DNA of 58,778 nucleotides. It comes from a virus (Duplodnaviria; Caudoviricetes). Both the position numbers and the translations under genes were made by a program. Below are positions 1-12,585 of this stretch, one piece after another (position 1 is the stretch's first letter; every line of letters starts with the position of its first letter). The stretch spans positions 1 to 58,778 of IMG/VR virus record IMGVR_UViG_3300028025_003040. The stretch is one strand, 5' to 3'. The notes under the pieces are model-generated. The model had not been told where the DNA came from. It saw only the letters and a program-made list of their open reading frames with translations, and did not search any database.

Positions 1-90
1 TAAGCCCGAAGAAATCTTAGCGGTAATCGCTGAACTAAATAAACTCGGTAAGGGTTTCACTTATAACATTAGAGAAGTAGAGGTAAAGTA

Positions 91-258
91 ATGATGACTA
101 AATGGGATACTATCCAAGCAGATGTATCAGATGCCTATGTGTATCTAGATGAAGAAGAGATGTATAACAAGGCTCTAGAAGAGGGCTTAGATTTTGGCTC
201 TGATGAATACGATGAAGATGAACTATCTAAATCACTTACACTAGATTGGGATAACTAA
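91..258 (+). CDS. small acidic hypothetical protein (55 aa)
   Basis: Read by hand; ATG after GAGG, abuts the stop of a truncated upstream ORF; below ORF-track cutoff. Confidence 0.6.
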   Translation: MMTKWDTIQADVSDAYVYLDEEEMYNKALEEGLDFGSDEYDEDELSKSLTLDWDN

Positions 259-260
259 TA

Positions 261-416
261 ATGATTAGCGACGGATTAGAATTACTACTAAGCGAATATG
301 GATTAGAGTTAGATAGTTTCTTAGGGGCTATCTATCTACCATGGCACACTATCGCTATCACCGCCCTACTAATAACCGCTTATAAGATTTATAAGAGAAA
401 GAAGATAACTAAATGA
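261..416 (+). CDS. small putative membrane protein (51 aa)
   Basis: Read by hand; hydrophobic C-terminal half followed by basic tail; tight gene packing. Confidence 0.55.
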   Translation: MISDGLELLLSEYGLELDSFLGAIYLPWHTIAITALLITAYKIYKRKKITK

Positions 417-523
417 ATAGACTACTAACTACTATCGTGCAACTAGCCTTAGCAGTACCCGCCTACTATTGTGTGCGCTACATGATCGCAGACATGAAAG
501 AGATGTGGCGAGAAACACACTAG
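413..523 (+). CDS. small putative membrane protein (36 aa)
   Basis: ATGA overlap with previous ORF; hydrophobic N-terminus. Confidence 0.5.
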   Translation: MNRLLTTIVQLALAVPAYYCVRYMIADMKEMWRETH

Positions 524-570
524 GATAACGGCGTGTCGCCTTGACAAAGGCGGTGGCTGCCCCTAATCTT

Positions 571-619
571 TTGCGGGGTCGGGCGTGTCGTTACGTGATT
601 GTTATAAATTACCCTGGAT
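571..619 (+). repeat. tripartite element copy 1 (TTGNGGG-N13-TTACG-N15/16-CCCTGRAA)
   Basis: TTGCGGG 571, TTACG 591, CCCTGGAT 612; 571-595 is identical to 1902-1926. Confidence 0.85.
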
Positions 620-660
620 TTTACGGCGTGTCGATTTGACAGACAAATCGGACATTTTGG

Positions 661-676
661 TGTGATGTGATTCACA
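661..676. promoter_or_regulatory. CRP-family binding site
   Basis: TGTGA-TGTGAT-TCACA, exact TGTGA-N6-TCACA. Confidence 0.65.
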
Positions 677-724
677 TGACTTGAGCGTCTCATATCGTGG
701 AATTACTGGCTAGTAGGTAGAAAA

Positions 725-747
725 TTGTCGGTGGCTTAGGCTATAAT
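725..747 (+). promoter_or_regulatory. RecA-NDp/PafBC-type promoter
   Basis: TTGTCGGTG-N8-TATAAT upstream of ORF 777. Confidence 0.8.
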
Positions 748-776
748 AGCGGTATAACGAAAGGAAGTGGCTAACA

Positions 777-977
777 ATGGCTAACTTATACACAATAGAA
801 AACTTGCTAATCGGCAAGACTTACAACTCAAAAACTTTGCGTGGAGAAATTATCTCAGCAGAAAAACACCCGAAGGCAATTTGGTATGGAGAAAATACCG
901 AAGCCTATTTGGTAGAAATCAACGCTGGAACTTTCCGCAATAAATTCCGCACAATAGCGGTGAAGGTTGGTGAGTAA
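777..977 (+). CDS. hypothetical protein
   Basis: ORF track; SD AACGAAAGGAA at 756. Confidence 0.8.
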   Translation: MANLYTIENLLIGKTYNSKTLRGEIISAEKHPKAIWYGENTEAYLVEINAGTFRNKFRTIAVKVGE

Positions 978-979
978 TA

Positions 980-1102
980 ATGGGATACATTGAAATTTTT
1001 AGAGTAAATGAAGAAGGTGCTGGCTGGGTAGATTTATCCGAAGCCACACCCGAAGAAATCTTAGATTTAGAAATCGGACTATTTCAGGAAGGTGCTATCT
1101 AA
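980..1102 (+). CDS. small hypothetical protein (40 aa)
   Basis: Read by hand; packed between neighbours. Confidence 0.55.
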   Translation: MGYIEIFRVNEEGAGWVDLSEATPEEILDLEIGLFQEGAI

Positions 1103-1164
1103 TGAATTTAGAAGAATTTAAAAAAAGCGTTATCGCTCAGCGTGAAGCAAGCAAGGCGCAGGCC

Positions 1165-1187
1165 TTGTCGGTGCTATCTGCTACAAT
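1165..1187 (+). promoter_or_regulatory. RecA-NDp/PafBC-type promoter
   Basis: TTGTCGGTG-N8-TACAAT. Confidence 0.75.
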
Positions 1188-1219
1188 TACAACTCAAACA
1201 AACGAAGGGGAAAACCTAA

Positions 1220-1384
1220 ATGGCTAAAGTAAAAGAATACATAGAAATTATCGCAGCGAATTGCGATGAATGCGGTGGCGCAGGATTTTTATTCTGGGGC
1301 AACGAAAAAAACTTTGATGTAGAGCCTTGCGCTTGCGTAGATGAAATTGCAGATGAACTAACAGTAGATTGGGTAAATGACTAA
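1220..1384 (+). CDS. small Zn-finger-like protein (54 aa)
   Basis: Read by hand: CDECGGAG...CAC; SD AACGAAGGGG. Confidence 0.65.
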   Translation: MAKVKEYIEIIAANCDECGGAGFLFWGNEKNFDVEPCACVDEIADELTVDWVND

Positions 1385-1587
1385 TGTATAAACTAACTAT
1401 TGCTTATGACGGAAATGCGCCACTAATAACTGAAACTTATTCAGACGCATTAACCGCCGTTCATTCTTTTGATAAATGCTCAGACTTTGGCGACGCTAAA
1501 GAATACGCAACTTATAATTTGTCAGAGCCTAATGGTAAAATGCACACTAAGAACTTCTACCGAAATGGAAAGGTATCACAAAAATGA
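1384..1587 (+). CDS. hypothetical protein
   Basis: ORF track; TAATG coupling. Confidence 0.75.
   Translation: MYKLTIAYDGNAPLITETYSDALTAVHSFDKCSDFGDAKEYATYNLSEPNGKMHTKNFYRNGKVSQK
1519..1541 (+). promoter_or_regulatory. RecA-NDp/PafBC-type promoter (intragenic)
   Basis: TTGTCAGAG-N8-TAAAAT. Confidence 0.6.
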
Positions 1588-1775
1588 TGACACGAAAAGA
1601 TTATATCGCAACCGCAGAAATTCTAAACTATGTTAGCAATAAAACGCACCCCGCTGTTTTTTCTAAAATGGTAAATGATTTTGCGGAAATGTTTGCAAAA
1701 GATAATGAGCGATTTGATGTAAAAAGATTTCACGAAGCGAGTGGGTACAATGTTCCTAACTTCTCTTCAAGATAA
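1584..1775 (+). CDS. hypothetical protein
   Basis: ORF track; ATGA coupling. Confidence 0.75.
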   Translation: MMTRKDYIATAEILNYVSNKTHPAVFSKMVNDFAEMFAKDNERFDVKRFHEASGYNVPNFSSR

Positions 1776-1881
1776 AGTAAAACGCATTCAGGAATTGCGT
1801 CGCAGTAATGCGGCGCAACCTGTTCGCAATAAAAAAAAATACACACGCAAGATCAAACATAAAAATAAACTTGACAATTAG
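1750..1881 (+). CDS. small basic protein (43 aa)
   Basis: Read by hand: MFLTSLQDKVKRIQELRRSNAAQPVRNKKKYTRKIKHKNKLDN. Confidence 0.5.
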   Translation: MFLTSLQDKVKRIQELRRSNAAQPVRNKKKYTRKIKHKNKLDN

Positions 1882-1901
1882 CGCAGCTGGCCCGCAATAC
1901 G

Positions 1902-1950
1902 TTGCGGGGTCGGGCGTGTCGTTACGGGTGTGATCAAAAACACCCTGGAA
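1902..1950 (+). repeat. tripartite element copy 2
   Basis: TTGCGGG 1902, TTACG 1922, CCCTGGAA 1943. Confidence 0.85.
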
Positions 1951-1971
1951 ATTTTGGGCGTGTTGCAAAAA

Positions 1972-1994
1972 ATGTCAGTGGCCTGTGGTATTAT
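1972..1994 (+). promoter_or_regulatory. RecA-NDp/PafBC-type promoter
   Basis: ATGTCAGTG-N8-TATTAT. Confidence 0.75.
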
Positions 1995-2023
1995 TCCATT
2001 ATCAACAAACGAAAGGTCAACTC

Positions 2024-2179
2024 ATGAACGATATCAACTCATGCTACTGTACTAACTACTCTATCTGCACAATTTGTGCACGAGGCTATTCTAGCGAAGG
2101 AATGGCCGTGTATGATCGTGATCTAGCGCAAGACTGGGCCATGTCAAGAATGGCCGATGCAGAAATGGGGGATTTATAA
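2024..2179 (+). CDS. small Cys-rich hypothetical protein
   Basis: Track ORF 1985 re-started at the ATG after SD AACGAAAGG (2008). Confidence 0.65.
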   Translation: MNDINSCYCTNYSICTICARGYSSEGMAVYDRDLAQDWAMSRMADAEMGDL

Positions 2180-2201
2180 TGTCAGACCGTCCTGTTATAA
2201 T
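2179..2201 (+). promoter_or_regulatory. RecA-NDp/PafBC-type promoter
   Basis: ATGTCAGAC-N8-TATAAT; overlaps a 34-aa CxxC..CxxC ORF at 2179-2283. Confidence 0.7.
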
Positions 2202-2282
2202 AAACTGTTCCATATGCGATACGCCTACCGAGGGCCTATGGTTTAGTATTGGCGATGTGATAACCTGTGAGGAGTGTTGGTA

Positions 2283-3002
2283 ATGAAATTAAAACGTTCT
2301 AACGATAGAAAGGTGGCTAACCTTGTCACAAAAAATGGAAAGCAAGCAGCAATTGCAAACACGTTCGGATTACCCGCAGGAAAAGACTTTTCATGTCCTG
2401 GTGCTACGTCTATCTGTGAGACTGTTTGCTACGCTGGGAAACTTGAAAAACTATTCAAGGGAGTAAAGACTAATCTCCTGCACAATTGGGAATTACTACG
2501 CAATGCAGATATGGATAGCATGCTGCTATTGCTTGATGAAATGATTGTTGAATTCGTCAATGATTGCAATAAGAAAGACGCTCCTAAGTTATTCCGTATC
2601 CACTGGGACGGAGATTTCTTCAATGATACTTATACATATGCCTGGAAGACTGTTATCTCTAATCATCCCGATGTTCAATTTTGGGTTTATACACGTGTAA
2701 AGTCTGCAGCGCTTATTCTTAAGGATGTTACTAATCTTTCACTGTACTATTCCACCGACGATGAGAATAAGGAAATTGGCCACGAGTTAAAGAAGAATTC
2801 TGGTATCCGCCTTGCTTATCTAGGAAAGACATTCGCCTTAACCGAAAGCACAATGAAAGAGTTAACGGGGAGGCCTGGCGCTAAGTGTCCTGAAAATATG
2901 AAATCTATTCCACTAATTAGCAATGCAGGCTCCGCATGCGTATCATGCGGCTTATGTGTCTACGGTAAAGCAGACATTCGATTTAGCGCAACTAAAAAAT
3001 AA
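2283..3002 (+). CDS. phage gp88-like protein (radical-SAM-related fold)
   Basis: CPGATSICETVCYA Cys cluster, RIHWDGDF and WVYTR motifs, C-terminal CxxCxxC. Confidence 0.7.
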   Translation: MKLKRSNDRKVANLVTKNGKQAAIANTFGLPAGKDFSCPGATSICETVCYAGKLEKLFKGVKTNLLHNWELLRNADMDSMLLLLDEMIVEFVNDCNKKDAPKLFRIHWDGDFFNDTYTYAWKTVISNHPDVQFWVYTRVKSAALILKDVTNLSLYYSTDDENKEIGHELKKNSGIRLAYLGKTFALTESTMKELTGRPGAKCPENMKSIPLISNAGSACVSCGLCVYGKADIRFSATKK

Positions 3003-3011
3003 GGAGACAAA

Positions 3012-3146
3012 ATGCAAAATCCATTCTATACAATGCCCCTTGGTTACATGAATGCATTAATAGCTAGCGTGACTGGCGATGAAGAATCTTCTAAGCTGGC
3101 TAAAGAATATTTAGCAGATGTTGATCCCGACACTTGGTCCGATTAG
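3012..3146 (+). CDS. small hypothetical protein (44 aa)
   Basis: Read by hand; AAGGAG SD. Confidence 0.55.
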   Translation: MQNPFYTMPLGYMNALIASVTGDEESSKLAKEYLADVDPDTWSD

Positions 3147-3175
3147 CTTGACAAACTAGATCAAAGCCCGCAACG

Positions 3176-3223
3176 TTGCGGGGTTATCCACAGTTTTACG
3201 AGAGTTATCCACAACCCCTGAAA
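3176..3223 (+). repeat. tripartite element copy 3, both spacers filled by DnaA boxes
   Basis: TTGCGGG 3176, TTACG 3196, CCCTGAAA 3216; TTATCCACA at 3184 and 3205. Confidence 0.85.
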
Positions 3224-3224
3224 A

Positions 3225-3240
3225 TGTGAGGTTAATCACA
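3225..3240. promoter_or_regulatory. CRP-family binding site
   Basis: TGTGA-GGTTAA-TCACA. Confidence 0.65.
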
Positions 3241-3272
3241 AAAGCTGCGACACGCCGAGAATGGATTAGGTA

Positions 3273-3295
3273 ATGTCGGTGGCTTAGTGTAAAAT
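3273..3295 (+). promoter_or_regulatory. RecA-NDp/PafBC-type promoter
   Basis: ATGTCGGTG-N8-TAAAAT. Confidence 0.75.
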
Positions 3296-3324
3296 ACCAT
3301 TATCAACCAAACGAAAGGCAACAA

Positions 3325-3531
3325 ATGAAAATCATCAGCCACTCTCTAAACTTCGTTACTGAAATTGACGAAACAAATCCAACTGCACAACGCTTACTTG
3401 CGTTACCTGAAAAGGAACAAATCCTTATGCTAGAAGGAATGTTAAAGTCTATCTTGCTTCCTAAGATTACTCCAGTTATCGACGAAGTAAATGAAGGTGG
3501 CTCTTGGGCTATTCTAAAGGTGGTGAAGTAA
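3325..3531 (+). CDS. hypothetical protein
   Basis: ORF track; SD AACGAAAGG at 3310. Confidence 0.8.
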   Translation: MKIISHSLNFVTEIDETNPTAQRLLALPEKEQILMLEGMLKSILLPKITPVIDEVNEGGSWAILKVVK

Positions 3532-3806
3532 TGTTATCAACTGCAACTGCGTTGCTAGACGCAACTAAAGACTCTATGTTCGATGAGGATATCATGGGGC
3601 TTGCGGGTGAACTACACACTCGCAGAAATGAACTTAGCGATGAAATTTTTGCTAAGTACCTATTTATGTATTCATCTGCCCTATCTGCTAAAGTAGCCGA
3701 TAGCATAACTAAGGTATTGCTAACTGAGCAAGAAATGTCAGACCTATGCGCTACAATAGACGAAATGGAAAACCTATCCGAAACTATCCTAGAGGAGAAC
3801 GAGTAA
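3531..3806 (+). CDS. hypothetical protein
   Basis: Track ORF 3504 re-started at TAATG overlap; contains ATGTCAGAC-N8-TACAAT promoter at 3735-3757. Confidence 0.75.
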   Translation: MLSTATALLDATKDSMFDEDIMGLAGELHTRRNELSDEIFAKYLFMYSSALSAKVADSITKVLLTEQEMSDLCATIDEMENLSETILEENE

Positions 3807-4072
3807 TGGGATTAAACACAGCAATAGACTTGGCAGAGAGTTTTGACCTAGACCAATCTATTTTAATTCATCTACAAAGTAATCACTATCCACCCGTACC
3901 CGCATCAATGGTACAACCATGTATCGATGCTATCGATGCCTACTACGATGAGGACTATGATAAATTGATCAAACTGCCTGAGCCAGTATTGTGGAAAGGT
4001 AGAGACGAAGCACCCGCTTCCGCTATCATAGAGGCTCATCACCTAGACGCTTGGCTTCCTGAGTCTTACTGA
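3806..4072 (+). CDS. hypothetical protein
   Basis: Track ORF 3746 re-started at TAATG overlap with GAGGAG SD. Confidence 0.75.
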   Translation: MGLNTAIDLAESFDLDQSILIHLQSNHYPPVPASMVQPCIDAIDAYYDEDYDKLIKLPEPVLWKGRDEAPASAIIEAHHLDAWLPESY

Positions 4073-4118
4073 CGGGTAAGGGGGGTGTGGTACAAATCAC
4101 ACCCCCATAAACTACTAA

Positions 4119-4141
4119 TTGTCGGTGGTATCCGCTATAAT
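4119..4141 (+). promoter_or_regulatory. RecA-NDp/PafBC-type promoter
   Basis: TTGTCGGTG-N8-TATAAT; preceded by inverted repeat 4081-4106 enclosing TGTGG-N6-TCACA. Confidence 0.8.
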
Positions 4142-4169
4142 ACTACCAACACCAAACGAAAGGAAACAA

Positions 4170-4316
4170 ATGCTAGAAATCGGACAGACCTTCACAACAA
4201 CACAGACAGGTATCACAGGTATTATCAAAGCCGTTGATAATCACCCAAGCGGTGTAAATCGTGTGCTACTAGATGTCAATGGCACAGAACGCTGGACAAG
4301 CGTATCTGCTGAATAA
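4170..4316 (+). CDS. small hypothetical protein
   Basis: SD AACGAAAGGAAA at 4155. Confidence 0.7.
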   Translation: MLEIGQTFTTTQTGITGIIKAVDNHPSGVNRVLLDVNGTERWTSVSAE

Positions 4317-4331
4317 TTCCTAATCGGGAAA

Positions 4332-4361
4332 TGTCCTGAGCATGACAACTAAAACTGCTCA
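4332..4361 (+). ncRNA. H-type pseudoknot motif, copy 1
   Basis: TGTC-CTGAGCAT-GACA-actaaaac-TGCTCA. Confidence 0.6.
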
Positions 4362-4388
4362 ACCCACAAACCCAACGAAAGGAATACC

Positions 4389-4805
4389 ATGTCAAGACAA
4401 ATCACAGTAAAGGTAGCAACAGCAAAAGTAATCAAGGCACTAGAGGCTCGTCTAGCAACGCTAGAAAAAGATTACTCATCACAAGAAGCAAACGAAGCCA
4501 AGTATCAAAAAGCCCGTGAAAAGTGGCAGAAAGAAATTGGTAAATGGGCTATTGAGAACTTCTCAAAGGCTGAAAATATCAGAACAAATTATCGTCAATG
4601 GAACAACACTCTTAATGTTGATTTTGACATCATCACAAAGGAAAGCAATTTCCCTACTGAACCTGAAAAAGACTACGAGCAAATCCATCAGCACACTTAT
4701 CGTGAGATGAAAGAGGACATCACAAATGCCCTAACAATTCTCAAAATGACAGATGAGGAAACAGTAAATGCTTCCACAATGAAGCAGATTGCTAAGTATC
4801 TCTAA
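4389..4805 (+). CDS. hypothetical coiled-coil protein
   Basis: ORF track; SD CAACGAAAGGAA at 4373. Confidence 0.85.
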   Translation: MSRQITVKVATAKVIKALEARLATLEKDYSSQEANEAKYQKAREKWQKEIGKWAIENFSKAENIRTNYRQWNNTLNVDFDIITKESNFPTEPEKDYEQIHQHTYREMKEDITNALTILKMTDEETVNASTMKQIAKYL

Positions 4806-4878
4806 CTGATGGCAGGGGGCTAGACAAAATCTAGCCCCCAATGCTACAATAGTTATCCCTACTAACAAAGGAAACAAA

Positions 4879-5103
4879 ATGCGTAATCGCTTTAGAATTG
4901 AAATCTATGACGCAAACAAAGCAAATGATTTAACAATGTACTCAGAGCAAGGCGTAGACAAAGAGTATCTAACTGAATTAGTATTCTCTAACCTCCGCCG
5001 TTTTAATGGTAAAGTTCGTGCCTATGTTTATGATAGCGTAAAGAAAAAGAAAATCACCGCAATGTTTCTTAATGAAGAAACAGTTGCTTCCTTAAATAAA
5101 TAA
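4879..5103 (+). CDS. hypothetical protein
   Basis: ORF track; SD AAAGGAAA; upstream hairpin 4816-4839. Confidence 0.75.
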   Translation: MRNRFRIEIYDANKANDLTMYSEQGVDKEYLTELVFSNLRRFNGKVRAYVYDSVKKKKITAMFLNEETVASLNK

Positions 5104-5108
5104 GAGCT

Positions 5109-5135
5109 TGGGGCGGGATCAAACTCGCCCCATTT
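5109..5135 (+). terminator. putative intrinsic terminator
   Basis: TGGGGCGGG-atcaaa-CTCGCCCCA-TTT right after the stop codon. Confidence 0.55.
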
Positions 5136-5166
5136 CCCAAATGTCCGTTTTGTCTGCCCCCATTCG

Positions 5167-5214
5167 TTGAGGGGTTTTCCACATGTTTACGACAAGCTGT
5201 GGATAACCCTGAAA
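5167..5214 (+). repeat. tripartite element copy 4 with DnaA boxes in both spacers
   Basis: TTGAGGG 5167, TTACG 5187, CCCTGAAA 5207; TTTTCCACA 5175 and TGTGGATAA 5198. Confidence 0.85.
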
Positions 5215-5217
5215 ATT

Positions 5218-5233
5218 TGTGAGATTGATCACA
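5218..5233. promoter_or_regulatory. CRP-family binding site
   Basis: TGTGA-GATTGA-TCACA. Confidence 0.65.
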
Positions 5234-5270
5234 TGACGCAATTCGGACAAATGACTCCTTAGACTAGTAA

Positions 5271-5293
5271 ATGTCAGACCCCTATGTTATACT
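5271..5293 (+). promoter_or_regulatory. RecA-NDp/PafBC-type promoter
   Basis: ATGTCAGAC-N8-TATACT. Confidence 0.75.
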
Positions 5294-5320
5294 AATCAAA
5301 CAATCAACCGAAAGGAAATC

Positions 5321-6325
5321 ATGGCTCACAATCTCGAAACCGAAAACGGCGAAGTTGCATTTGCTCTTCGTGGCGCACCTGCTTGGCATAACCTTGCCAA
5401 TCGTATCTTCAATCAAGATGAAGAAGTTACAACACAAACAATGCTTGATGAAGCAAAACTATCCAACTGGAATGTTCGCTTATCTCCATTGACCGACCAC
5501 ATTTCAGAATCTTGGAATGATGTATCAAATGCATCTCTTGTCATTCGTGACAACCCATTCAATAAGGGAATCGATGTTCTTGCAACTGTTGGCAAACGTT
5601 ACAAGCCTGTGCAGAATGAAGAACTATTTGCATTCGCTGATGCAATTCACGATGCCAATGCTGATTGCCGTTGGGAATCTGCGGGTTCTCTTAAGAAAGG
5701 CAAAGTTGTATTTGGTACTGTAGATATTCCTCGCACAATGGTTCTTGACCCACAAGGCGCCAATGACCAAACAAAGTTATATCTAATCGTATGGACATCA
5801 CACGATGGTTCTGTTGCCGTTCAAGCAGCGGTTACACCTGTTCGTGTTGTATGTCAAAACACGCTAAACCTTGCAATGAAGAATGCTAAGCAATCTTTCA
5901 AGATTCGCCACACGCAATCTGTTGAAGGTCGCATTCAAGTTGCTCGTGAAACTCTTGGGCTTGCTCTTGGTTATTTCGATGAATTCGAAGTTCAAGCAAA
6001 GGCTCTTTATTCACAAGCAATTACCGATGCTGAATTCTCTAAGTTAATTCAGACAATCTATCCTAAGCCTGAAAAAGATGCTAAGGGTGCATTGAAGAAG
6101 TGGGAAAATAAAGTTGTTCTAATTGACGACCTTTATCATAACTCACCAACCAATGCGACAATCAAGGGAACAAAGTGGGGTGCATTCAATGCACTAACTG
6201 AGCGCCTTGATTACTACCGCTCTGGTCGTGGTAATTCAGAATCCCTAATGGCGGGTGCAAGTGGTTTTGACCCAATCTTAACCGCAGAAAAAAATAAGTT
6301 GTATCGAATGGTTGCAACTTTCTAA
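5321..6325 (+). CDS. DUF932-family (TIGR03299-like) phage/plasmid protein
   Basis: MAHNLE..PAWH, YKPVQN, ESAGSL, SHDGS, TPVRVVCQNTL, GTKWGAFNALTE motifs. Confidence 0.85.
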   Translation: MAHNLETENGEVAFALRGAPAWHNLANRIFNQDEEVTTQTMLDEAKLSNWNVRLSPLTDHISESWNDVSNASLVIRDNPFNKGIDVLATVGKRYKPVQNEELFAFADAIHDANADCRWESAGSLKKGKVVFGTVDIPRTMVLDPQGANDQTKLYLIVWTSHDGSVAVQAAVTPVRVVCQNTLNLAMKNAKQSFKIRHTQSVEGRIQVARETLGLALGYFDEFEVQAKALYSQAITDAEFSKLIQTIYPKPEKDAKGALKKWENKVVLIDDLYHNSPTNATIKGTKWGAFNALTERLDYYRSGRGNSESLMAGASGFDPILTAEKNKLYRMVATF

Positions 6326-6331
6326 ATAATA

Positions 6332-6360
6332 AAATCCTGAGCAAGATTTAAAACTGCTCA
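6332..6360 (+). ncRNA. H-type pseudoknot motif, copy 2
   Basis: AAATC-CTGAGCAA-GATTT-aaaac-TGCTCA, 6 nt before tRNA-Asp. Confidence 0.6.
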
Positions 6361-6366
6361 CCATTT

Positions 6367-6443
6367 GGTCCATTAGCTCAGTTGGTTAGAGCGCTACCCT
6401 GTCACGGTAGAGGTCGACGGTTCAAGTCCGTTATGGATCGCCA
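6367..6443 (+). tRNA. tRNA-Asp(GTC)
   Basis: Cloverleaf; anticodon arm CTACC-CTGTCAC-GGTAG; TTCAAGT T-loop; encoded CCA. Confidence 0.93.
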
Positions 6444-6473
6444 GGTGTATCAAAATGTGAGACGCCCCCAAGA

Positions 6474-6522
6474 TTGAAGGCAGGATTTTTGTGTTACGAA
6501 TCACAAAAAAATTACCCTGGAA
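6474..6522 (+). repeat. tripartite element copy 5 with overlapping CRP-like site
   Basis: TTGAAGG 6474, TTACG 6494, CCCTGGAA 6515; TGTGT-TACGAA-TCACA 6490-6505. Confidence 0.8.
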
Positions 6523-6533
6523 AGCTATTGTAA

Positions 6534-6556
6534 ATGTCAGTGGCACCCACTATAAT
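6534..6556 (+). promoter_or_regulatory. RecA-NDp/PafBC-type promoter
   Basis: ATGTCAGTG-N8-TATAAT; second copy GTGTCAGAC-N8-TAGAAT at 6679-6701. Confidence 0.75.
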
Positions 6557-6562
6557 AGCGAC

Positions 6563-7207
6563 ATGTTCAAATCATATTGGTATGTGTGTACATCTTGTGA
6601 TGCATCTATTGAGATCGTATCTAAGGGAATACATTTTCAGGACCCGTCCTGTAATTGTTCAGACCCAGCAGTTGTATGGTGTCAGACCAGTGTGGTAGAA
6701 TCATCCACTAACCAAACGAAAGAGGAACAAATGGAAGAAACAACATATGGAGCAACAGTAACACCTGCAGTAACCGTGCCTGACACATACAATCCTAATC
6801 TATTGGTAACCTATAAAGTTATCCACGGATATTCAGATGCAGAATACGCAACTGATAAGGTCACATCAATTGAATGGGACTTGCACAATGCACGTCAAGC
6901 ACAGAAGCGTAATGCAGTTTTTCAAGATAAGATTGATGCAGTCAAGCAAATTATCTGCGAAGCATATGCAGATTCACAAGACCAAGACACATTGCGTGAA
7001 ATTGCTGAAGCGCTTGATATTGAACTTGTCAAGGAAGTTGAGTGGACTGCATCTATCGAAGTTAGCGGAACATATTCATACAACATTCTTGAGAATGATT
7101 ACGAGTTAGACCTCGAGTCAGATATTACAGATGCAATCTTTGCTGATTCACATCACGGAAACATTGAAATTAATGACCAAGAAGTATGTAATGTTAGGGA
7201 AGCCTAA
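6563..7207 (+). CDS. hypothetical protein with N-terminal Zn-ribbon; alternative start at 6731
   Basis: Track ORF 6491; ATG 6563 lies 6 nt after a -10 box; ATG 6731 has its own SD and promoter. Confidence 0.7.
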   Translation: MFKSYWYVCTSCDASIEIVSKGIHFQDPSCNCSDPAVVWCQTSVVESSTNQTKEEQMEETTYGATVTPAVTVPDTYNPNLLVTYKVIHGYSDAEYATDKVTSIEWDLHNARQAQKRNAVFQDKIDAVKQIICEAYADSQDQDTLREIAEALDIELVKEVEWTASIEVSGTYSYNILENDYELDLESDITDAIFADSHHGNIEINDQEVCNVREA

Positions 7208-7422
7208 TGTATTTTGAACTAAAGGCACCAAACCAGTTGGCCCTGCAAGGGGCCTTCTGGGAAGCCGAAGTAGTTGGTCTTGACCCTGAATTAAATTCAC
7301 AACCATTGACATTCAATATCGGAACTGGTAGCATAGAGAAGGTGAGTCGCATTCGTGATAAGTATAACTTAGTAGAGTCATACACTAGCGATTACGAGCC
7401 AACAGGATATACAAGGAGATAA
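7207..7422 (+). CDS. hypothetical protein
   Basis: ORF track; TAATG coupling. Confidence 0.75.
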   Translation: MYFELKAPNQLALQGAFWEAEVVGLDPELNSQPLTFNIGTGSIEKVSRIRDKYNLVESYTSDYEPTGYTRR

Positions 7423-7423
7423 A

Positions 7424-7570
7424 ATGTCAGACTATAAAGATGGTTTCACAGATGGCGTTAAGTGGGCTAAGGAAGACTTAGCAGAGCGCCTACGTGAAAT
7501 TGATATTATGGATATCGATTCGTGGATGTTAGATAGACTAGCAGATATGATAGAGGGCGGAGATCTCTAA
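7424..7570 (+). CDS. small hypothetical protein (48 aa)
   Basis: Read by hand; AAGGAG SD. Confidence 0.65.
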   Translation: MSDYKDGFTDGVKWAKEDLAERLREIDIMDIDSWMLDRLADMIEGGDL

Positions 7571-7773
7571 TGGAAGATTTAACTAGATGGATCGGCTGCG
7601 ATCAATGCGGGACAGCTCAAGCAATGTATCTAATTAAACTAGTAGATGGTGAGCTGTACTTTTGTCACCACCACTATAATAAAAACAAAGAGGCCCTTGA
7701 CAAGGTTTCATTTGAAATGATAGAATTGAATAAAACAGAAGAAGTACCTCAACTAGAAACGGCGGAAATATAA
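7570..7773 (+). CDS. small Zn-binding protein
   Basis: CDQC...FCHHH motif. Confidence 0.7.
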   Translation: MEDLTRWIGCDQCGTAQAMYLIKLVDGELYFCHHHYNKNKEALDKVSFEMIELNKTEEVPQLETAEI

Positions 7774-8180
7774 TGGGAGATAGAGCAAACTTTGGATTCG
7801 TCCAACCTAATGGAAATACAATTGTGCTATACGGTCACTGGGCTGGATACAACATGCTTGGTAAGTTAGCGGATGCTGTAATCGCTGCTCGTCCAAGGTG
7901 GACCGATACATCATATGCAACACGTATTGCTATCAGTCAATTAATTGGAGACCAATGGAATATGGAAACAGGTTGGGGCCTGCAGGTAAATGAGCGCTCT
8001 GACAATGAACATAAGATTGCAATCGTAGACTTTGAACAGCAAACGTTTTCTCTTCACGAGGAAGACGACTTTAGAAATCAAGACAACAAAGTTCGTGGAA
8101 TGAAGAATGAAGCAATCTTTACCATGGACCTGTCAGCATTCTGCGAGAAGTATGCATTGGAAAATATCTTAGTCAACTAA
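7773..8180 (+). CDS. hypothetical phage protein
   Basis: ORF track; MGDRAN..LYGHW N-terminus. Confidence 0.8.
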   Translation: MGDRANFGFVQPNGNTIVLYGHWAGYNMLGKLADAVIAARPRWTDTSYATRIAISQLIGDQWNMETGWGLQVNERSDNEHKIAIVDFEQQTFSLHEEDDFRNQDNKVRGMKNEAIFTMDLSAFCEKYALENILVN

Positions 8181-8196
8181 TATGATATAATATTGA

Positions 8197-8330
8197 TAGG
8201 CCTGGTGCCTATTCATATGAGTGGTGCATCTACTCAAGATGCTAAGTAAGGCAGGTTTTTCCTTTCGTTGAGGTCCTAGCAGCCGCTCCTTTAAACCCCC
8301 GTGTATTACAGTCCACGGGGGTTTATTCTT
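8197..8330 (+). ncRNA. candidate sRNA with anti-Shine-Dalgarno loop
   Basis: TGaTATAAT at 8183-8191; internal stems; TTTCCTTTCGTTG at 8258-8270; terminator AAACCCCCGTG..CACGGGGGTTT at 8293-8324; no credible ORF. Confidence 0.6.
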
Positions 8331-8342
8331 GCCCGCAAAAGC

Positions 8343-8391
8343 TTGAGGGTAAAATATTCTTCTTACGGAAGTCAAATAAATTTCCCAGGAA
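8343..8391 (+). repeat. tripartite element copy 6
   Basis: TTGAGGG 8343, TTACG 8363, CCCAGGAA 8384. Confidence 0.8.
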
Positions 8392-8442
8392 TTTCAGCAT
8401 ATGAGATCATGTGGTGTAGAACACACCCATATAGTATATACA

Positions 8443-8465
8443 ATGTCAGTGGTCTAATATATAAT
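8443..8465 (+). promoter_or_regulatory. RecA-NDp/PafBC-type promoter
   Basis: ATGTCAGTG-N8-TATAAT. Confidence 0.75.
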
Positions 8466-8492
8466 AAGAACATATCAGCGAAAGGATATAAT

Positions 8493-9269
8493 ATGCCAAA
8501 CTGGGTGTATAACACATTAACTATACAAGGACCAAAAGAACAAGTAGATTCAATTAAAGATAGATTAAATGCTCCATTTACATTAGCACAGGAGACATTT
8601 GGTATGGGTGATATTTCTTCTATGGGATTTCCTACTAAGATTATTCAGGTATCTTATTCTAATCCCGTTTTTTCTTTCAACAATATCCATTCATATAAGG
8701 ATGACGGAATTACTGATGAGGAATATGCCTGCCAACCTAATCGTGGTGATATAGATATTCAGAATGACCCTGATTGGTTCCGCAAATCTGTTGAGTTTGC
8801 TAAGACTCAGAAGGATTGGTACTCTTGGAATAATTCTAACTGGGGAACTAAATGGGATGTAGCCGTCCGTGACGGAGATGAATATCCAAATACAGAACTA
8901 ATTGAATATAAGTCAGAAGGTGAAGACAACTGGGTTATATATAAATATGAGACTGCATGGTCACCTGCTGTAACTATCTTAACTAAACTAAGTAATCTTG
9001 TTCCTAACTGTGTTCTTACTTTAGAATTTGAGGAAGAGACAGGTTGGGGTGGTGAATATGAAATTATCAAGGGTGAAGTAAGAGAACTAATGGAATGGGA
9101 GAATCGTTGTTATGCTTGCCAATCTTTTGATACATTGAGTTACTGTGAAGATGAATGTGGAGAGTTCTGCTCAGAATGTAATCAAGGCTCTTGGCAGGAT
9201 GAAGAGGCAATGGCAAAATGTCAGACCCACATGGTACTATTGGAATCTACAGAAAAGGCGGAAGTATGA
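8493..9269 (+). CDS. DUF1281/YubB-like ferredoxin-fold protein with Cys-rich tail
   Basis: MPNWVYNTL start, WYSWN..NWGTKWD, ETAWSP motifs; internal promoter at 9218-9240. Confidence 0.75.
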   Translation: MPNWVYNTLTIQGPKEQVDSIKDRLNAPFTLAQETFGMGDISSMGFPTKIIQVSYSNPVFSFNNIHSYKDDGITDEEYACQPNRGDIDIQNDPDWFRKSVEFAKTQKDWYSWNNSNWGTKWDVAVRDGDEYPNTELIEYKSEGEDNWVIYKYETAWSPAVTILTKLSNLVPNCVLTLEFEEETGWGGEYEIIKGEVRELMEWENRCYACQSFDTLSYCEDECGEFCSECNQGSWQDEEAMAKCQTHMVLLESTEKAEV

Positions 9270-9496
9270 GTTTCTTAGAAAACGAAAACCAAATGGTGAT
9301 TGACGCTGAACTGCAAGAAATTGCAGAACAGTTATTAGATGACTGGATGAATTCTAATTTAGATGAAGGTCAGTTATATGCAGATTGGAGAATTGCAGAC
9401 ATGTCATCTAGCAATTATCTCAAAGGTAGGTTTAATCAACATTATGATTTAACACCTGATAACCAATACTATCTAGAATTTGATGAGGAGAAATAA
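9266..9496 (+). CDS. hypothetical acidic protein
   Basis: ATGA coupling. Confidence 0.7.
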   Translation: MSFLENENQMVIDAELQEIAEQLLDDWMNSNLDEGQLYADWRIADMSSSNYLKGRFNQHYDLTPDNQYYLEFDEEK

Positions 9497-9660
9497 TGTT
9501 AGGGTATACGCAGAAAGATTTGGCAGATATGACCTATGGGGTCTACCAAGCTGACCTGTTGGTCAATGCTGATGAAAATCCTGCAATTCATAATTATTTA
9601 GTTATGGCTCATGATTTCTTACAGGGCTTGTGGGCAGAAGGGTATTTCGATCATGTCTAA
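9496..9660 (+). CDS. small hypothetical protein (54 aa)
   Basis: Read by hand; GAGGAG SD, TAATG coupling. Confidence 0.65.
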   Translation: MLGYTQKDLADMTYGVYQADLLVNADENPAIHNYLVMAHDFLQGLWAEGYFDHV

Positions 9661-9838
9661 ATCATCTTACTTCCTAGAATATATGAAAGTTCATTTAATT
9701 AGTCTTATACAAGATTTAGATAAAGATTTGAATGTTGAATCTAAGATTAATATCCAAGGACAAATTATGGCAACAGAACATTTGTTGTCAGTGGCTACTG
9801 ATATAATGAATTCTTCTAACGAAAGGGTATATGAATGA
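9653..9838 (+). CDS. hypothetical protein
   Basis: Track ORF 9611 re-started; contains TTGTCAGTG-N8-TATAAT at 9785-9807. Confidence 0.65.
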   Translation: MSKSSYFLEYMKVHLISLIQDLDKDLNVESKINIQGQIMATEHLLSVATDIMNSSNERVYE

Positions 9839-10098
9839 GACATACTGAACTTCCCGTCCATTTACAACGAATGGTAGACGCAGAGGTAACGGGGCTCGAC
9901 ATCATGCATGGAGAACTAAAAAACCTCATGCTTCTTGGAGAAAAGGAATTAGAGCGGACCTTGATAGCGGAACAAGAATCAGGAGAAGCAATGGATTCTA
10001 TGGAACGTACTTATGCAGAAGGATATCTAGACGCATTAGTATCTTTATATAAACTAACATATGATTTATCATTTGCCATTGGGGGAAAAAATGAGTAG
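9835..10098 (+). CDS. hypothetical protein
   Basis: ORF track; SD AACGAAAGGG. Confidence 0.75.
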   Translation: MRHTELPVHLQRMVDAEVTGLDIMHGELKNLMLLGEKELERTLIAEQESGEAMDSMERTYAEGYLDALVSLYKLTYDLSFAIGGKNE

Positions 10099-10321
10099 TT
10101 ATGAGCCAAGCTTGGAAATCCTGGAAGTTAATTACGGCTGTTCTCCAGGAGGTGTAGATACATTTGAGGTCTATGATAGATCTGAGATTGAGCCTGTACA
10201 AATACCAATATATGAGACAGAGTCCTTGACCGAAGCGGTCCTATTCTGTTACAATTTGGGAAAGGACTTTATTGTTCGAACATTAGCGGAATGGGAAGAA
10301 CGGGAGTTAATGAATGCCTAA
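10091..10321 (+). CDS. hypothetical protein
   Basis: Track ORF 10061 re-started at overlap. Confidence 0.7.
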   Translation: MSSYEPSLEILEVNYGCSPGGVDTFEVYDRSEIEPVQIPIYETESLTEAVLFCYNLGKDFIVRTLAEWEERELMNA

Positions 10322-10493
10322 ATACAGAGTCTTTGGAGTTCAAGAAAAGAATTACTATGCAATCGTTGAGGCAACTGACGAATATGAAGCATGGGACATA
10401 ATCAACGGGGACAAAGTCTTCCAATGGTTTGCAATACCTACAGATAAAACAATCGAACCTACTGAAGTATATGGGGAGTATGATGAAGCCTGA
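10314..10493 (+). CDS. small hypothetical protein (59 aa)
   Basis: Read by hand: MPKYRVFGVQEKNYYAIVEATDEYEAW... Confidence 0.65.
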   Translation: MPKYRVFGVQEKNYYAIVEATDEYEAWDIINGDKVFQWFAIPTDKTIEPTEVYGEYDEA

Positions 10494-10812
10494 TGACAAA
10501 GATAAACTAAATGAATGCTTAAAGATTCTAGATTCCACCGACCTTGGCTTGTCCCTGGTTTGGCTATGGACCTGGTCTACAATTAATAACATCTTTGAGG
10601 ATGAGACCTACAAGCAGAACTGCACCATAGATGAGATGTGGGACCACCTCTGTGAGGCTGTGGAGGCAGGCCAGGGCTTCTCTCTAGAGTACGGGGCAGA
10701 ACAACATCAAGACGACGTACTTGAATGGATGATGAATCGTGAATACATTGTAGACACAATGTTTGAGGAAGACGAGGAGGACGAAGATGAGGATGAAGAT
10801 AAAGATGAGTGA
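10480..10812 (+). CDS. hypothetical protein with acidic tail
   Basis: Track ORF 10429 re-started at GGGGAG SD. Confidence 0.75.
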   Translation: MMKPDDKDKLNECLKILDSTDLGLSLVWLWTWSTINNIFEDETYKQNCTIDEMWDHLCEAVEAGQGFSLEYGAEQHQDDVLEWMMNREYIVDTMFEEDEEDEDEDEDKDE

Positions 10813-10945
10813 TCAATATGTCGACTCTGTCCTTGCAGAGGCCCAACGGCTTCTGTGGGGCGGATCTGAGACAGAGAACATTGCTGCACACAACCTGATA
10901 GCAAAGCTTATTAAAGACAGATTACCTGATGAAGAAGTGGAGTAG
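10805..10945 (+). CDS. small hypothetical protein
   Basis: Track ORF 10763 re-started at overlap. Confidence 0.6.
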   Translation: MSDQYVDSVLAEAQRLLWGGSETENIAAHNLIAKLIKDRLPDEEVE

Positions 10946-11153
10946 ATTCTACAAAACTATAGATAAGCAGATCTATGTTTATTTAAAGAATGAGGATCCT
11001 GACACATATAAGGTACATGCATATGGGATGTCTAGATACTATAAAGGCGAGGACGCAATTCAGCAGCTTATTAAATTAGTTAGAGATTTAGGCGATTGTG
11101 ATCTAAATGAATCTTTAATTAAAGAAGCAAAGAAAGAATTCGTGGGGGCGTAA
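10929..11153 (+). CDS. hypothetical protein
   Basis: ORF track. Confidence 0.6.
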   Translation: MKKWSRFYKTIDKQIYVYLKNEDPDTYKVHAYGMSRYYKGEDAIQQLIKLVRDLGDCDLNESLIKEAKKEFVGA

Positions 11154-11189
11154 AAAGCTTGTTACGAAACAATTAAATATCGGCTGGAA
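11142..11189 (+). repeat. tripartite element copy 7 (degenerate)
   Basis: GTGGGGG 11142, TTACG 11162, GGCTGGAA 11182. Confidence 0.6.
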
Positions 11190-11192
11190 CTA

Positions 11193-11221
11193 TTGACCAA
11201 ATCGGCAATAGTTGATATACT
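11193..11221 (+). promoter_or_regulatory. housekeeping sigma promoter
   Basis: TTGACC-N17-TATACT. Confidence 0.65.
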
Positions 11222-11255
11222 AATATAAAACAATATCTCGAAAGGATATACTACT

Positions 11256-11402
11256 ATGACAACAAAGCGTGAATATCTAAAGTCACAAGGAATTACAGTT
11301 GGTGCCCGTGGTCGTTTCTCAGGAGCTGCAAAGGTAGCTATTGATGAGGCCCTGAAGAAGGGTGTTAGCTTCACAGCTGAGAAGCCTGCAGCAAAGAAGT
11401 AA
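11256..11402 (+). CDS. Lsr2-like stand-alone DNA-binding domain (48 aa)
   Basis: Read by hand: MTTKREYLKSQGITVGARGRFSGAAKVAIDEAL..., like the Lsr2 C-terminal RxW..G..V..RGR AT-hook; SD CGAAAGGA. Confidence 0.65.
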   Translation: MTTKREYLKSQGITVGARGRFSGAAKVAIDEALKKGVSFTAEKPAAKK

Positions 11403-11484
11403 CACATATAGATCGGAGGGGCTGGTTGACGAGAGTTGCCAGCCCTTCCCCAATTTGGTACAATACTATAACGAAAGGCGGACT

Positions 11485-11853
11485 ATGAGTAAAACACCAG
11501 AAACAAAAGTAGCAGAACAACTAATCAATCTAACAGAAAGCCATTGGTTCAATCCAGCAACGCTGGGTAGTTATATGGCAGACCAACCGCTATATACTAT
11601 TGACCGAGTTATGGAAATGCTTGCTCAAACAGTTCATTATCTAAATAAGAGATATGGACAAGAGCAAATCAATGGTCGCACATCAGAAGGTCTATTGCTT
11701 GCTAATAAATTAGACATGTTAATTAAATCTATTAAACATACTGACAATCTTCAACTGCCGAAGGCACCTTCTAAGATAATTGGCGGGATAAAGAAAATGG
11801 ATCCCTCCCTCAGATACTCTCATATCAGAGAGACCAATAGCCAAGTACAATAG
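11485..11853 (+). CDS. hypothetical protein
   Basis: SD AACGAAAGG at 11470; last gene of the + arm. Confidence 0.75.
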   Translation: MSKTPETKVAEQLINLTESHWFNPATLGSYMADQPLYTIDRVMEMLAQTVHYLNKRYGQEQINGRTSEGLLLANKLDMLIKSIKHTDNLQLPKAPSKIIGGIKKMDPSLRYSHIRETNSQVQ

Positions 11854-12384
11854 AATAAACATATAGCCCAAATTATCCACAGTCTTATCCACAGGCTGTG
11901 GATTTTTTGTGGACAAAATTGGGGGCAGCTTTTTCCTTTTACGAGAGATCTAAAAATATCCTGGAATATCTGAGAGAAATGTATATATATCTTATTAAAC
12001 ATTATATATATGTCGACAAATCTATATAGAATTTAATAGAATTGTGGGCAAATTTTCCCGTTTACGGGGGCATATTAAATACCCCTGAAGCCTACAAATG
12101 TCGACAAAATGCTTGACAAATTTGCACGGATGTGCATCTATTGACATAAATGGAGCAAAATGGTATTAAGTGGGTAATTGTGGAGGGTGTTCAAATACAC
12201 ATATGTATATATGTCGATATATTGATAGTGTGCTGGAGGGAATTAATAGTATTTACTTTGGTAGATATCCTGTAGATATGGCTCTAAAAAGGCTTATAAG
12301 AGGATTTGAGGGGGGTCTGAGGGGAAGGGGATATAGGAGTTAGATGCTATTTTGGATGCTATCTCAGCAATTTATAGAGGCATG
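11854..12384. other. non-coding arm junction with DnaA-box cluster (origin-like or terminal-repeat end)
   Basis: TTATCCACA 11873 and 11885, TGTGGATTT 11897, TGTGGACAA 11908; tripartite copies 8 (11919-11966) and 9 (12042-12090); AT-rich tract about 11980-12040. Confidence 0.55.
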
Positions 12385-12585
12385 TTAATCATGCATTATG
12401 GCTGAGTTCATCCAGATATCTCCATCATTGTTGATCGAGTACTTTAGAATCATTGTCTTATTACACTTTAAGCATTTAGGTAAGAAGTCTAACTCTCTAC
12501 TTAGCTCTATATTCATCTCTGATCTATCTGACATACATAGGAAGTTATAGGTGAATATGGGATCTATCTCGCCTTCCCGCCCCAT
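12385..12585 (-). CDS. small Zn-ribbon protein
   Basis: YNFLC...PKCLKC..M pattern; true start may be internal. Confidence 0.5.
   Translation of the reverse strand: MGREGEIDPIFTYNFLCMSDRSEMNIELSRELDFLPKCLKCNKTMILKYSINNDGDIWMNSAIMHD

Follow-up and report, generated by a model that had tools for sequence, protein, structure and literature searches.

Repeated promoter cassettes with exchangeable regulatory boxes, possibly read by host proteins, in the small-gene arm of a freshwater actinophage

We analyzed a 58,778-base stretch of viral DNA (the window; IMG/VR record IMGVR_UViG_3300028025_003040), a linear viral contig that is a fragment, 54% complete by estimate. Positions 1-11853 hold about 35 small genes, every one on the plus strand and mostly without known function; the first 12.4 kb of the window is called the arm. 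Six intergenic gaps of the arm carry the same composite cassette on the plus strand, and its parts stand in one order: a GC hairpin block, TTACG, CC[CT][AT]G[AG]A, the promoter TGTCRGTG-N8-TAnnnT and usually the ribosome site CGAAAGG. We put the chances at about even that these are modular early-type promoter cassettes, in which a PafBC-type core promoter is combined with a varying set of operator boxes, the readers of some being probably host DnaA and a Crp-family protein. The shared order of element, host-type sites, RecA-NDp-type promoter and usual CGAAAGG had been claimed by a sequence-only reading of this DNA. The observation was confirmed, with the motifs occurring far above their frequency in shuffled sequences, and the interpretation built on it was partly supported.

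Relatives of the phage were collected using the DUF932 protein of the arm as the query. The search returned 282 related viral contigs. We kept 80 loci (90–97% protein identity), four of which sit in near-complete genomes of 115–120 kb, and together with the window they make up 81 sequences. Motif counts in the window were compared with 100 dinucleotide shuffles of the window. The core of the scaffold, TTACG-N15-19-CCYWGRA, occurs in the window seven times, always on the plus strand, against 0.10 expected, and 0 of 100 shuffles reach seven. The seventh match, at 12062, lies in the junction 11854-12384. Each gap has one first block of the form GCCC[CG][CGT]-N6-14-RGG[GC], and CC[CT][AT]G[AG]A begins 15–17 nt past TTACG. 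Across the 81 sequences, the scaffold was found 361 times in the forward and 0 times in the reverse orientation, and the spacer between TTACG and CCCTGRA is 15–16 nt in 372 of 471 loosely matched contexts. In the four near-complete relatives, 24 of 26 scaffold matches lie inside the promoter-rich block, all on one strand. The cassette grammar belongs to one block of one phage clade. The cassettes of the arm have the following composition.

Cassette 1, 522..776, plus strand: GGCGTGTCG 530-538, 582-590 and 625-633; CTTGACA 540-546; GC hairpin block 559-578; TTACG 591-595; CCCTGGA 612-618; TCGGACA 648-654; perfect TGTGA-N6-TCACA 661-676; promoter TGTCGGTG-N8-TATAAT 726-747; CGAAAGG 758-764; ATG 777.
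Cassette 2, 1870..2023, plus strand: CTTGACA 1870-1876; hairpin block 1890-1909; GGCGTGTCG 1913-1921; TTACG 1922-1926; CCCTGGA 1943-1949; GGCGTGTTG 1957-1965; promoter 1973-1994; CGAAAGG 2010-2016; ATG 2024.
Cassette 3, 3146..3324, plus strand: CTTGACA 3147-3153; hairpin block 3166-3183; DnaA boxes 3184-3192 and 3205-3213; TTACG 3196-3200; CCCTGAA 3216-3222; perfect CRP-like palindrome 3225-3240; GGCGTGTCG (reverse) 3248-3256; promoter 3274-3295; CGAAAGG 3312-3318; ATG 3325.
Promoter-only cassette without scaffold, 4073..4169, plus strand: GC hairpin containing a one-mismatch CRP-like palindrome 4086-4101; promoter 4120-4141; CGAAAGG 4157-4163; ATG 4170.
Cassette 4, 5' of the DUF932 gene, 5104..5320, plus strand: terminator-like hairpin about 5110-5132; hairpin block 5156-5174; DnaA box TTTTCCACA 5175-5183; TTACG 5187-5191; inverted DnaA box 5198-5206; CCCTGAA 5207-5213; perfect CRP-like palindrome 5218-5233; TCGGACA 5243-5249; promoter TGTCAGAC-N8-TATACT 5272-5293; CGAAAGG 5309-5315; ATG 5321.
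tRNA-Asp (GTC), 6367..6443, plus strand: just 5' of cassette 5.
Cassette 5, 6444..6730, plus strand: first block 6464-6481; one-mismatch CRP-like palindrome 6490-6505, overlapping TTACG; TTACG 6494-6498; CCCTGGA 6515-6521; promoter 6535-6556; second promoter 6680-6701; CGAAAGA 6717-6723; ATG 6731.
Cassette 6, 8326..8492, plus strand: first block 8331-8349; TTACG 8363-8367; CCCAGGA 8384-8390; imperfect palindrome 8410-8425; promoter 8444-8465; CGAAAGG 8479-8485; ATG 8493.

In cassette 5, an ATG at 6563, 6 nt past the promoter 6535-6556, is in frame with the gene 6731-7207. It may be a leaderless start that gives the protein a longer Cys-rich N-terminus, within which the second promoter and its ribosome site lie. 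The first scaffold block was considered as a true terminator and ruled out: its stems are 3–7 bp long, imperfect and lack a T-run. The mean fold energy of the block is −7.7 kcal/mol against −5.4 kcal/mol for shuffles (202 contexts). Stronger hairpins upstream of the scaffold and separate from the first block, for example at 5110-5132, look like real terminators. An RNA switch, in which GGGG would pair with either flanking CCC, was also dropped: the slot contents are direct or inverted repeats depending on the relative.

The promoter in its strict form, TGTCRGTG-N8-TANNNT, occurs eight times in the window, all on the plus strand between 726 and 9807, against 0.05 expected (0/100 shuffles). A looser form occurs 14 times on the plus strand and never on the minus strand. 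TGTC is invariant in both the 8 strict and the 14 looser copies. Across the 81 sequences, 1059 copies are forward and one is reverse. The four near-complete relatives have 14–17 promoters each, on a single strand and nearly all in one block of about 9–12 kb, with control counts of 0–3; the Streptomyces phage BillNye has 0 copies of the motif. The logo of 758 distinct contexts reads aaaTGTCAGtgcc...tg.TAtAaT. The −35 position carries no information, and the logo is nearly flat on the 5' side of the aaaTGTC box. Two-hexamer sites of the sigma-70 type are not enriched in the arm (46 versus 35.9 ± 5.8). We rejected the idea that TGTCAG is the inverted −35 of a leftward promoter, there being no conserved −10 on that side. 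The ribosome site CGAAAGG occurs 11 times in the window, 10 of them on the plus strand (758-11478), against 3.61 expected, and 0 of 100 shuffles reach 11. It precedes the ATG by 5–12 nt in five of the six gaps.

PMC8635444 gives the PafBC motif as tGTCgg(N10)tA(N3)T: a −26 element and a canonical −10 are present, a −35 is missing, and the GTC is strictly conserved across actinobacteria. RecA-NDp promoters are reported in Streptomyces too (PMC5087735). As far as the letters go, the phage promoter matches this consensus: the TGTC box with its GTC, 10 nt from TGTCRG to the TAnnnT −10, and no −35. The earlier assignment to the RecA-NDp type thus holds at this level. The phage promoters differ from the described ones in that they stand in a phage, in 14 copies per 12 kb, mostly with TGTCAG and with a near-consensus, often extended −10. 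Besides the cassettes, promoter copies without a scaffold were found inside and between genes.

1166-1187, 1520-1541, 2180-2201, 3736-3757 and 9219-9240, plus strand: scaffold-free promoter copies.
9786-9807, plus strand: scaffold-free promoter, followed by CGAAAGG at 9820 and ATG at 9835.

The starts ATGTCAGAC of several small genes (2179, 7424, 9218) overlap the TGTCAGAC promoter box that serves the next gene.

Three kinds of boxes in the scaffold slots exceed their expected numbers. The DnaA-type 9-mer TTWTCCACA occurs nine times in the window against 1.60 expected (0/100 shuffles), six times in the arm, and across the 81 sequences 338 times forward and 126 times in reverse. By sequence, these are putative DnaA boxes that agree with the consensus, are clustered and stand in either orientation. 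The palindrome TGTGA-N6-TCACA with at most one mismatch occurs seven times against 2.19 expected (0/100 shuffles). Five copies lie in arm gaps: three perfect ones in gaps 1, 3 and 4, and two with one mismatch, in gap 5 and at 4086. The 81 sequences hold 454 such palindromes, which have the form predicted for a Crp/GlxR-type site. The sequence-only reading had placed a CRP site in gap 5; the copy there is real, with one mismatch, but the site is not confined to this gap. The third box, GGCGTGTCG, occurs with at most one mismatch eight times against 1.85 expected (0/100 shuffles), seven times within 530-3256, and across the 81 sequences 339 times forward and 103 times in reverse. It is what remains of the GACAC boxes that had been proposed for gaps 1 and 2. 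Bare GACAC, the WhiA site, is not enriched (14 in the 12.4-kb arm versus 46 in the 46.4 kb elsewhere). Therefore, the WhiA assignment fails, and the conserved unit is the longer GGCGTGTCG.

We compared the region upstream of DUF932 in the 81 sequences, 60 of which are distinct there. The conserved order is hairpin block, GGGG, DnaA box, TTACG, second DnaA box, CCCTGRA and palindrome, followed by a conserved ATTCGGACA...CTAGACAA stretch, the promoter and the ribosome site. Most relatives have the second DnaA box inverted; in others it is direct. Such flipping is easier to reconcile with a protein site than with an RNA stem. In several relatives CCCTGRA decays (for example, to cgcccaaaa), though the boxes persist. 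Boxes were then counted in the distinct 300-nt upstream sequences of each gap, leaving out the gaps that have 2 and 9 orthologues and three rows (gene anchors 6732, 8494 and 11486) taken in a wrong reading frame.

Gap 1: DnaA at least 1 in 14/56; perfect palindrome 52/56; GGCGTGTCG 51/56; scaffold 37/56; promoter 56/56.
Gap 3: DnaA 2 in 20/25; perfect palindrome 24/25; GGCGTGTCG 22/25; scaffold 24/25; promoter 25/25.
Gap before 4170: DnaA 0/58; perfect palindrome 32/58; GGCGTGTCG 0/58; scaffold 0/58; promoter 57/58.
DUF932 gap (gap 4): DnaA at least 2 in 57/60; perfect palindrome 56/60; GGCGTGTCG 0/60; scaffold 48/60; promoter 60/60.

Each gap thus has a box set of its own that is kept among the relatives, and a certain amount of swapping occurs around a fixed frame. 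Such a comparison of orthologous gaps for shuffling around a fixed scaffold had been suggested together with the claim that the host-type sites in the scaffold spacers differ between copies, and the claim was borne out: the sets differ between copies and are conserved within orthologous gaps. The DnaA boxes assigned to gaps 3 and 4 are both enriched in the window and kept in most orthologues of these gaps. The proposal that each operon reads one host state was not supported: most cassettes combine several box types.

The position of the palindrome is restricted as well. In 127 of 186 distinct contexts, its centre is found 15.5–19.5 bp past the first base of CCCTG. The distance from the centre to the first base of the next −10 is within 1 bp of 42.5, 52.5, 62.5 or 72.5 in 258 of 319 contexts, which are related sequences and represent perhaps 6–8 independent gap classes. 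If the −10 starts at −12, the centres stand near −54.5, −64.5, −74.5 and −84.5. This 10-bp phasing of the palindrome with the promoter is suggestive and is not a probability. In E. coli, class I CRP sites are centred at −61.5, −71.5 and so on. The phage palindromes resemble class I CRP and Crp-GlxR sites in having TGTGA-N6-TCACA upstream of a promoter, in what look like 10-bp steps. They differ in the positions of the centres and in the additional fixed distance from the CCCTG of the scaffold.

We also looked for phage proteins that could read the cassettes. Sigma70_r2, WYL and DnaA_C domains were absent from all four near-complete relatives, and a search of the same genomes for a Crp helix-turn-helix gave one sub-threshold hit only, with an internal stop codon. 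The 108 open reading frames of the window likewise yielded no recognisable reader of the sigma, WYL, DnaA or Crp kind. Thus, recognisable readers, if there are any, belong to the host. A curious observation in a phage with PafBC-like promoters is that the 186-aa product of 18853-19413 (minus strand) has a weak, sub-threshold match to a proteasome subunit family (E 0.007). PafBC is named after the proteasome accessory-factor (Paf) genes.

In the explanation to which we give about even credence, the arm, a one-directional 12.4-kb small-gene block, is divided into operons by composite regulatory cassettes. Each of these most likely has as its working promoter TGTCRG-N10-TAtAAT, with a −26 box containing GTC, an often extended −10 and no −35, and a GAAAGG ribosome site would follow about 10–25 nt past the −10. 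Host sigma-A RNA polymerase with a PafBC-type adaptor would read this promoter ('sigma adaptation'). Upstream of it, an oriented scaffold of about 55 bp would hold interchangeable boxes in its spacers and just downstream: DnaA-type 9-mers, the Crp-family palindrome at whole helical turns from the −10, GGCGTGTCG, TCGGACA and TGTCGACA. Jointly, the boxes would supply every operon with an input combination of its own, and host proteins probably account for at least some of the inputs. As repeated units, the cassettes also resemble recombination points at which small genes may be shuffled, as happens with the PeSL cassettes of T4-type phages. The anatomy of the cassettes, the enrichment and strand bias of their motifs, their conservation and spacing and the lack of recognisable phage readers are observed; we infer which proteins bind, in which direction they regulate and when the genes are expressed. 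A bolder version seems to us quite unlikely: the fixed oriented scaffold would be a socket into which host-regulator sites are swapped by recombination, so that each early operon is gated by its own combination of host signals, with DnaA standing for the replication state, the Crp-family protein for carbon/cAMP and the PafBC box for single-stranded DNA. We found no description of phage promoters of the PafBC type or of such a scaffold in the open-access full-text literature.

Several observations weigh against modular cassettes with host readers. A more distant relative, L082 (DUF932 identity 72%; 12,990 bases cut out of a metagenome-bin contig of 110 kb), is without DnaA boxes and has a degenerate scaffold, TTACG-N15-CTCTGGA, so DnaA boxes and scaffold are not universal. 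In favour of the cassettes, it retains 12 promoters, all on the plus strand, three GGCGTGTCG boxes and four perfect palindromes, 72.5, 51.5, 72.5 and 82.5 bp from the −10. In the junction of the window, two scaffold copies (TTACG at 11939 and 12062) have neither a promoter nor a gene behind them, a poor fit to a purely promoter-linked role. One palindrome-distance class, 57.5 (46 cases), is off the 10-bp phase, and the phasing as a whole comes from the few independent gap classes mentioned above. Most phage copies read TGTCAG, whereas the mycobacterial motif is TGTCgg, its two g's being weakly conserved according to PMC8635444. The near-consensus, often extended −10 might fire without an activator, and the TGTCAG box would then be an operator for a phage protein. 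No PHROG match exists for 29 of 37 arm proteins, and in an NCBIfam search with 24 arm proteins the DUF932 protein (TIGR03299) alone was above the cut-off; any of the boxes might be read by small phage proteins whose fold is unknown. From here it is a short step to the explanation that all boxes are operators for early regulators of unknown fold encoded by the phage, that their host likeness is coincidence or convergence, and that constitutive extended −10 promoters are shut off later. We consider this rather unlikely. The TG found upstream of the −10 in most copies and the few Pfam hits in the arm agree with it, and we know of no host consensus that GGCGTGTCG, TCGGACA or TGTCGACA would match. 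Asymmetric repeated operators occur in actinophages, the 'stoperators' of cluster A being a precedent. However, three motifs match three host consensuses (the GTC box with exact spacing, TTATCCACA and TGTGA-N6-TCACA), and the arm has no recognisable helix-turn-helix regulator. Promoters that start an infection, moreover, cannot rely on proteins not yet made, unless these are injected.

It is also possible, though unlikely, that the scaffold is a second promoter, with TTTACG as a −35-like and the element 15–17 bp further on as a −10-like hexamer, read by an alternative sigma of the host or by a phage factor. The tandem promoters would then serve two phases, and the boxes in the spacer and at +1 would be repressor sites. 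The scaffold has a promoter-like geometry in its narrow spacer range and a single orientation, and it stands 5' of genes, on their coding strand; boxes within the spacer and past CCCTG occupy classic repressor positions, and TTTACG in the junction copies is directly adjoined by A/T-rich sequence. To our knowledge, however, CCCTGRA fits no −10 consensus of an actinobacterial sigma factor, no sigma gene was found in the four near-complete relatives, CCCTGRA is degenerate in some orthologues that keep the boxes, and the junction copies have no downstream gene. Somewhat doubtful, but deserving more weight, is the explanation that recombination is the main role of the cassettes, which would be PeSL-type modules, units of terminator and promoter that swap small genes, in which the boxes matter less. 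PeSLs are defined as strong early promoters with stem-loops in hyperplastic regions (PMC2839356); the arm shares with them a repeated stem-loop and early-type promoter between small non-essential genes of a variable region, and it shows possible signs of recombination between units. Contigs from the assemblies of four freshwater metatranscriptome libraries (four studies) join cassettes at like positions: 747 to 3310, 5297 to 4172, 5233 to 698 and 3200 to 5197. Contigs that are 88–100% like the arm cover 28–29 of 30 bins in these libraries; being assembled, they are uninformative on transcription, strand or starts. The genes behind the cassettes vary among the 81 sequences: the gap-2 gene is present in 2 and the gap-3 gene in 33, while the 4170, 4389, 4879 and DUF932 genes are present in 80–81, and part of the absence may reflect loci cut short. 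The phage cassettes differ from PeSLs, which have plain sigma-70 promoters and true terminators, by the −35-less promoter and by an extra oriented scaffold with interchangeable, putative protein boxes. Recombination by itself leaves unexplained the gap-specific conservation of the boxes, the flips of single boxes and the helical phasing, and it is compatible with regulated cassettes rather than opposed to them. Finally, the arm could act as a decoy, its array of sites titrating host DnaA, Crp and further regulators, as the sequence-only reading had offered, or the junction with its DnaA boxes could be a DNA-entry stop or replication origin, compare phage T5; we find this very improbable. The untranslated junction does contain a cluster of DnaA boxes together with repeats and AT-rich palindromes, and it resembles the T5 iss region, which has eight DnaA boxes (bioRxiv 10.1101/866236). 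Both are untranslated, carry repeats and palindromes besides the DnaA boxes and close a block of small early-type genes. There are three boxes here against eight, DnaA boxes also stand inside the promoter cassettes, and no terminal repeat or two-step injection is known for this phage. The arm of the window has only six DnaA-type boxes. The window is a fragment, and in one near-complete relative, where the block lies at about 94.6–105.4 kb of 116.2 kb (G002), the ends overlap by just 120 bp. The label of first-expressed DNA, which the sequence-only reading gave to the arm, is accordingly unsupported. We found no evidence for titration, which would not require boxes at fixed positions relative to promoters.

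The SPO1 phage of Bacillus carries a host-takeover module of about 12 kb with many small genes, dense repeated strong early promoters and ribosome sites. The arm is like this module in its length, its small genes, its dense repeated promoters and its strong ribosome sites. The SPO1 module has canonical sigma-A promoters and lies in the terminal redundancy, and we know of no scaffold with host-regulator boxes described for SPO1.

The genes from 12385 on lie on the minus strand and point at the arm, so 11854-12384 is convergent and untranslated. The span given by the sequence-only reading, 522..12384, takes in this region; it is a convergent junction and not a further operon gap. It contains the following features.

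11873, 11885 and 11908 (reverse; TTGTCCACA variant): DnaA boxes.
TTACG at 11939 and 12062, and CCCTGAA at 12083: scaffold-like copies.
12011 and 12099, and the variant TGTCGATA at 12212: TGTCGACA-type boxes.

Junction DnaA boxes 1 and 3 form a hairpin, which is followed by a T-run. The junction is conserved in the scaffold contexts of the relatives. It could be an origin, a terminator zone or a T5-like stop region. Just before it (region 11154..11484), the last two genes of the arm use canonical-looking promoters instead of the TGTCRG type.

11193-11221, plus strand: canonical-looking sigma-70-type promoter TTGACC-17-TATACT before the Lsr2-like gene; CGAAAGG at 11239.
11436-11464, plus strand: canonical-looking promoter TTGCCA-17-TACAAT before the gene 11485-11853; CGAAAGG at 11472.
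8183..8332, plus strand: candidate small RNA; TGATATAAT 8183-8191, then CCUUUCGUU, with a strong terminator hairpin at about 8292-8325.

An Lsr2 mini-protein and an anti-Shine-Dalgarno small RNA had been proposed as the counter-silencer and the off-switch of the cassettes. The 48-aa product of 11256-11402 matches PHROG 6269, 'Lsr2-like DNA bridging protein' (E 2.3e-7), which lends modest support to an Lsr2-like identity, although the Pfam Lsr2_DNA-bd match is weak (E 0.023). The small RNA is plausible in the window: it has an extended −10 of its own, its CCTTTCG at 8261-8267 is complementary to the shared CGAAAGG, and its fold has z = −3.2. Its anti-Shine-Dalgarno motif, however, was found in only 16 of the 81 sequences, the copy of the window included.

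The minus-strand part of the window codes for DnaE, DnaB, primase, RecA, WhiB, Cpn10, thioredoxin and tail-type proteins, and the GC content of the window is 35–42%. By DnaE, the closest cultured relatives are Streptomyces phages such as BillNye (Stanwilliamsviridae; 58.7% identity), and the arm gave no nucleotide match to cultured phages in megablast. The WhiB gene points to an actinobacterial host. The phage appears to be an uncultured freshwater actinophage of about 115 kb, distant kin of the Streptomyces phages in Stanwilliamsviridae. The phage carries genes for Cpn10 (13410-13709), thioredoxin (16370-16672) and an Hsp20-family chaperone (26582-26998), all on the minus strand. The window has six tRNA genes, and an Rfam scan of 1-12500 found tRNA alone. 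With Cpn10 as the query against cellular genomes, there were 329 pattern matches and no relative among them. The WhiB search returned only phage-clade proteins (at least 73% identity), and the DUF932 alignment gave two loci, the phage-like contig of L082 and an unrelated 1.7-kb contig. The bin from which L082 comes is labelled a cyanobacterium, yet its 110-kb contig bears the arm of the phage clade with DUF932 and 12 promoters. L082 is probably a phage contig binned together with a cell genome, and we did not take it as host evidence. Isolated Nanopelagicales phages have 39-kb genomes, a size unlike that of this phage (PMC10202952), and they give no host assignment for the clade.

If host PafBC, DnaA and a Crp-family protein do read the cassettes, very abundant freshwater phages would wire their take-over genes to three sensors of the state of the host. 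The cassettes would then be a modular, swappable promoter architecture and a new example of 'sigma adaptation' by a phage. They would also supply promoter parts, ready for use, in low-GC actinobacteria, a group with little-developed genetics.

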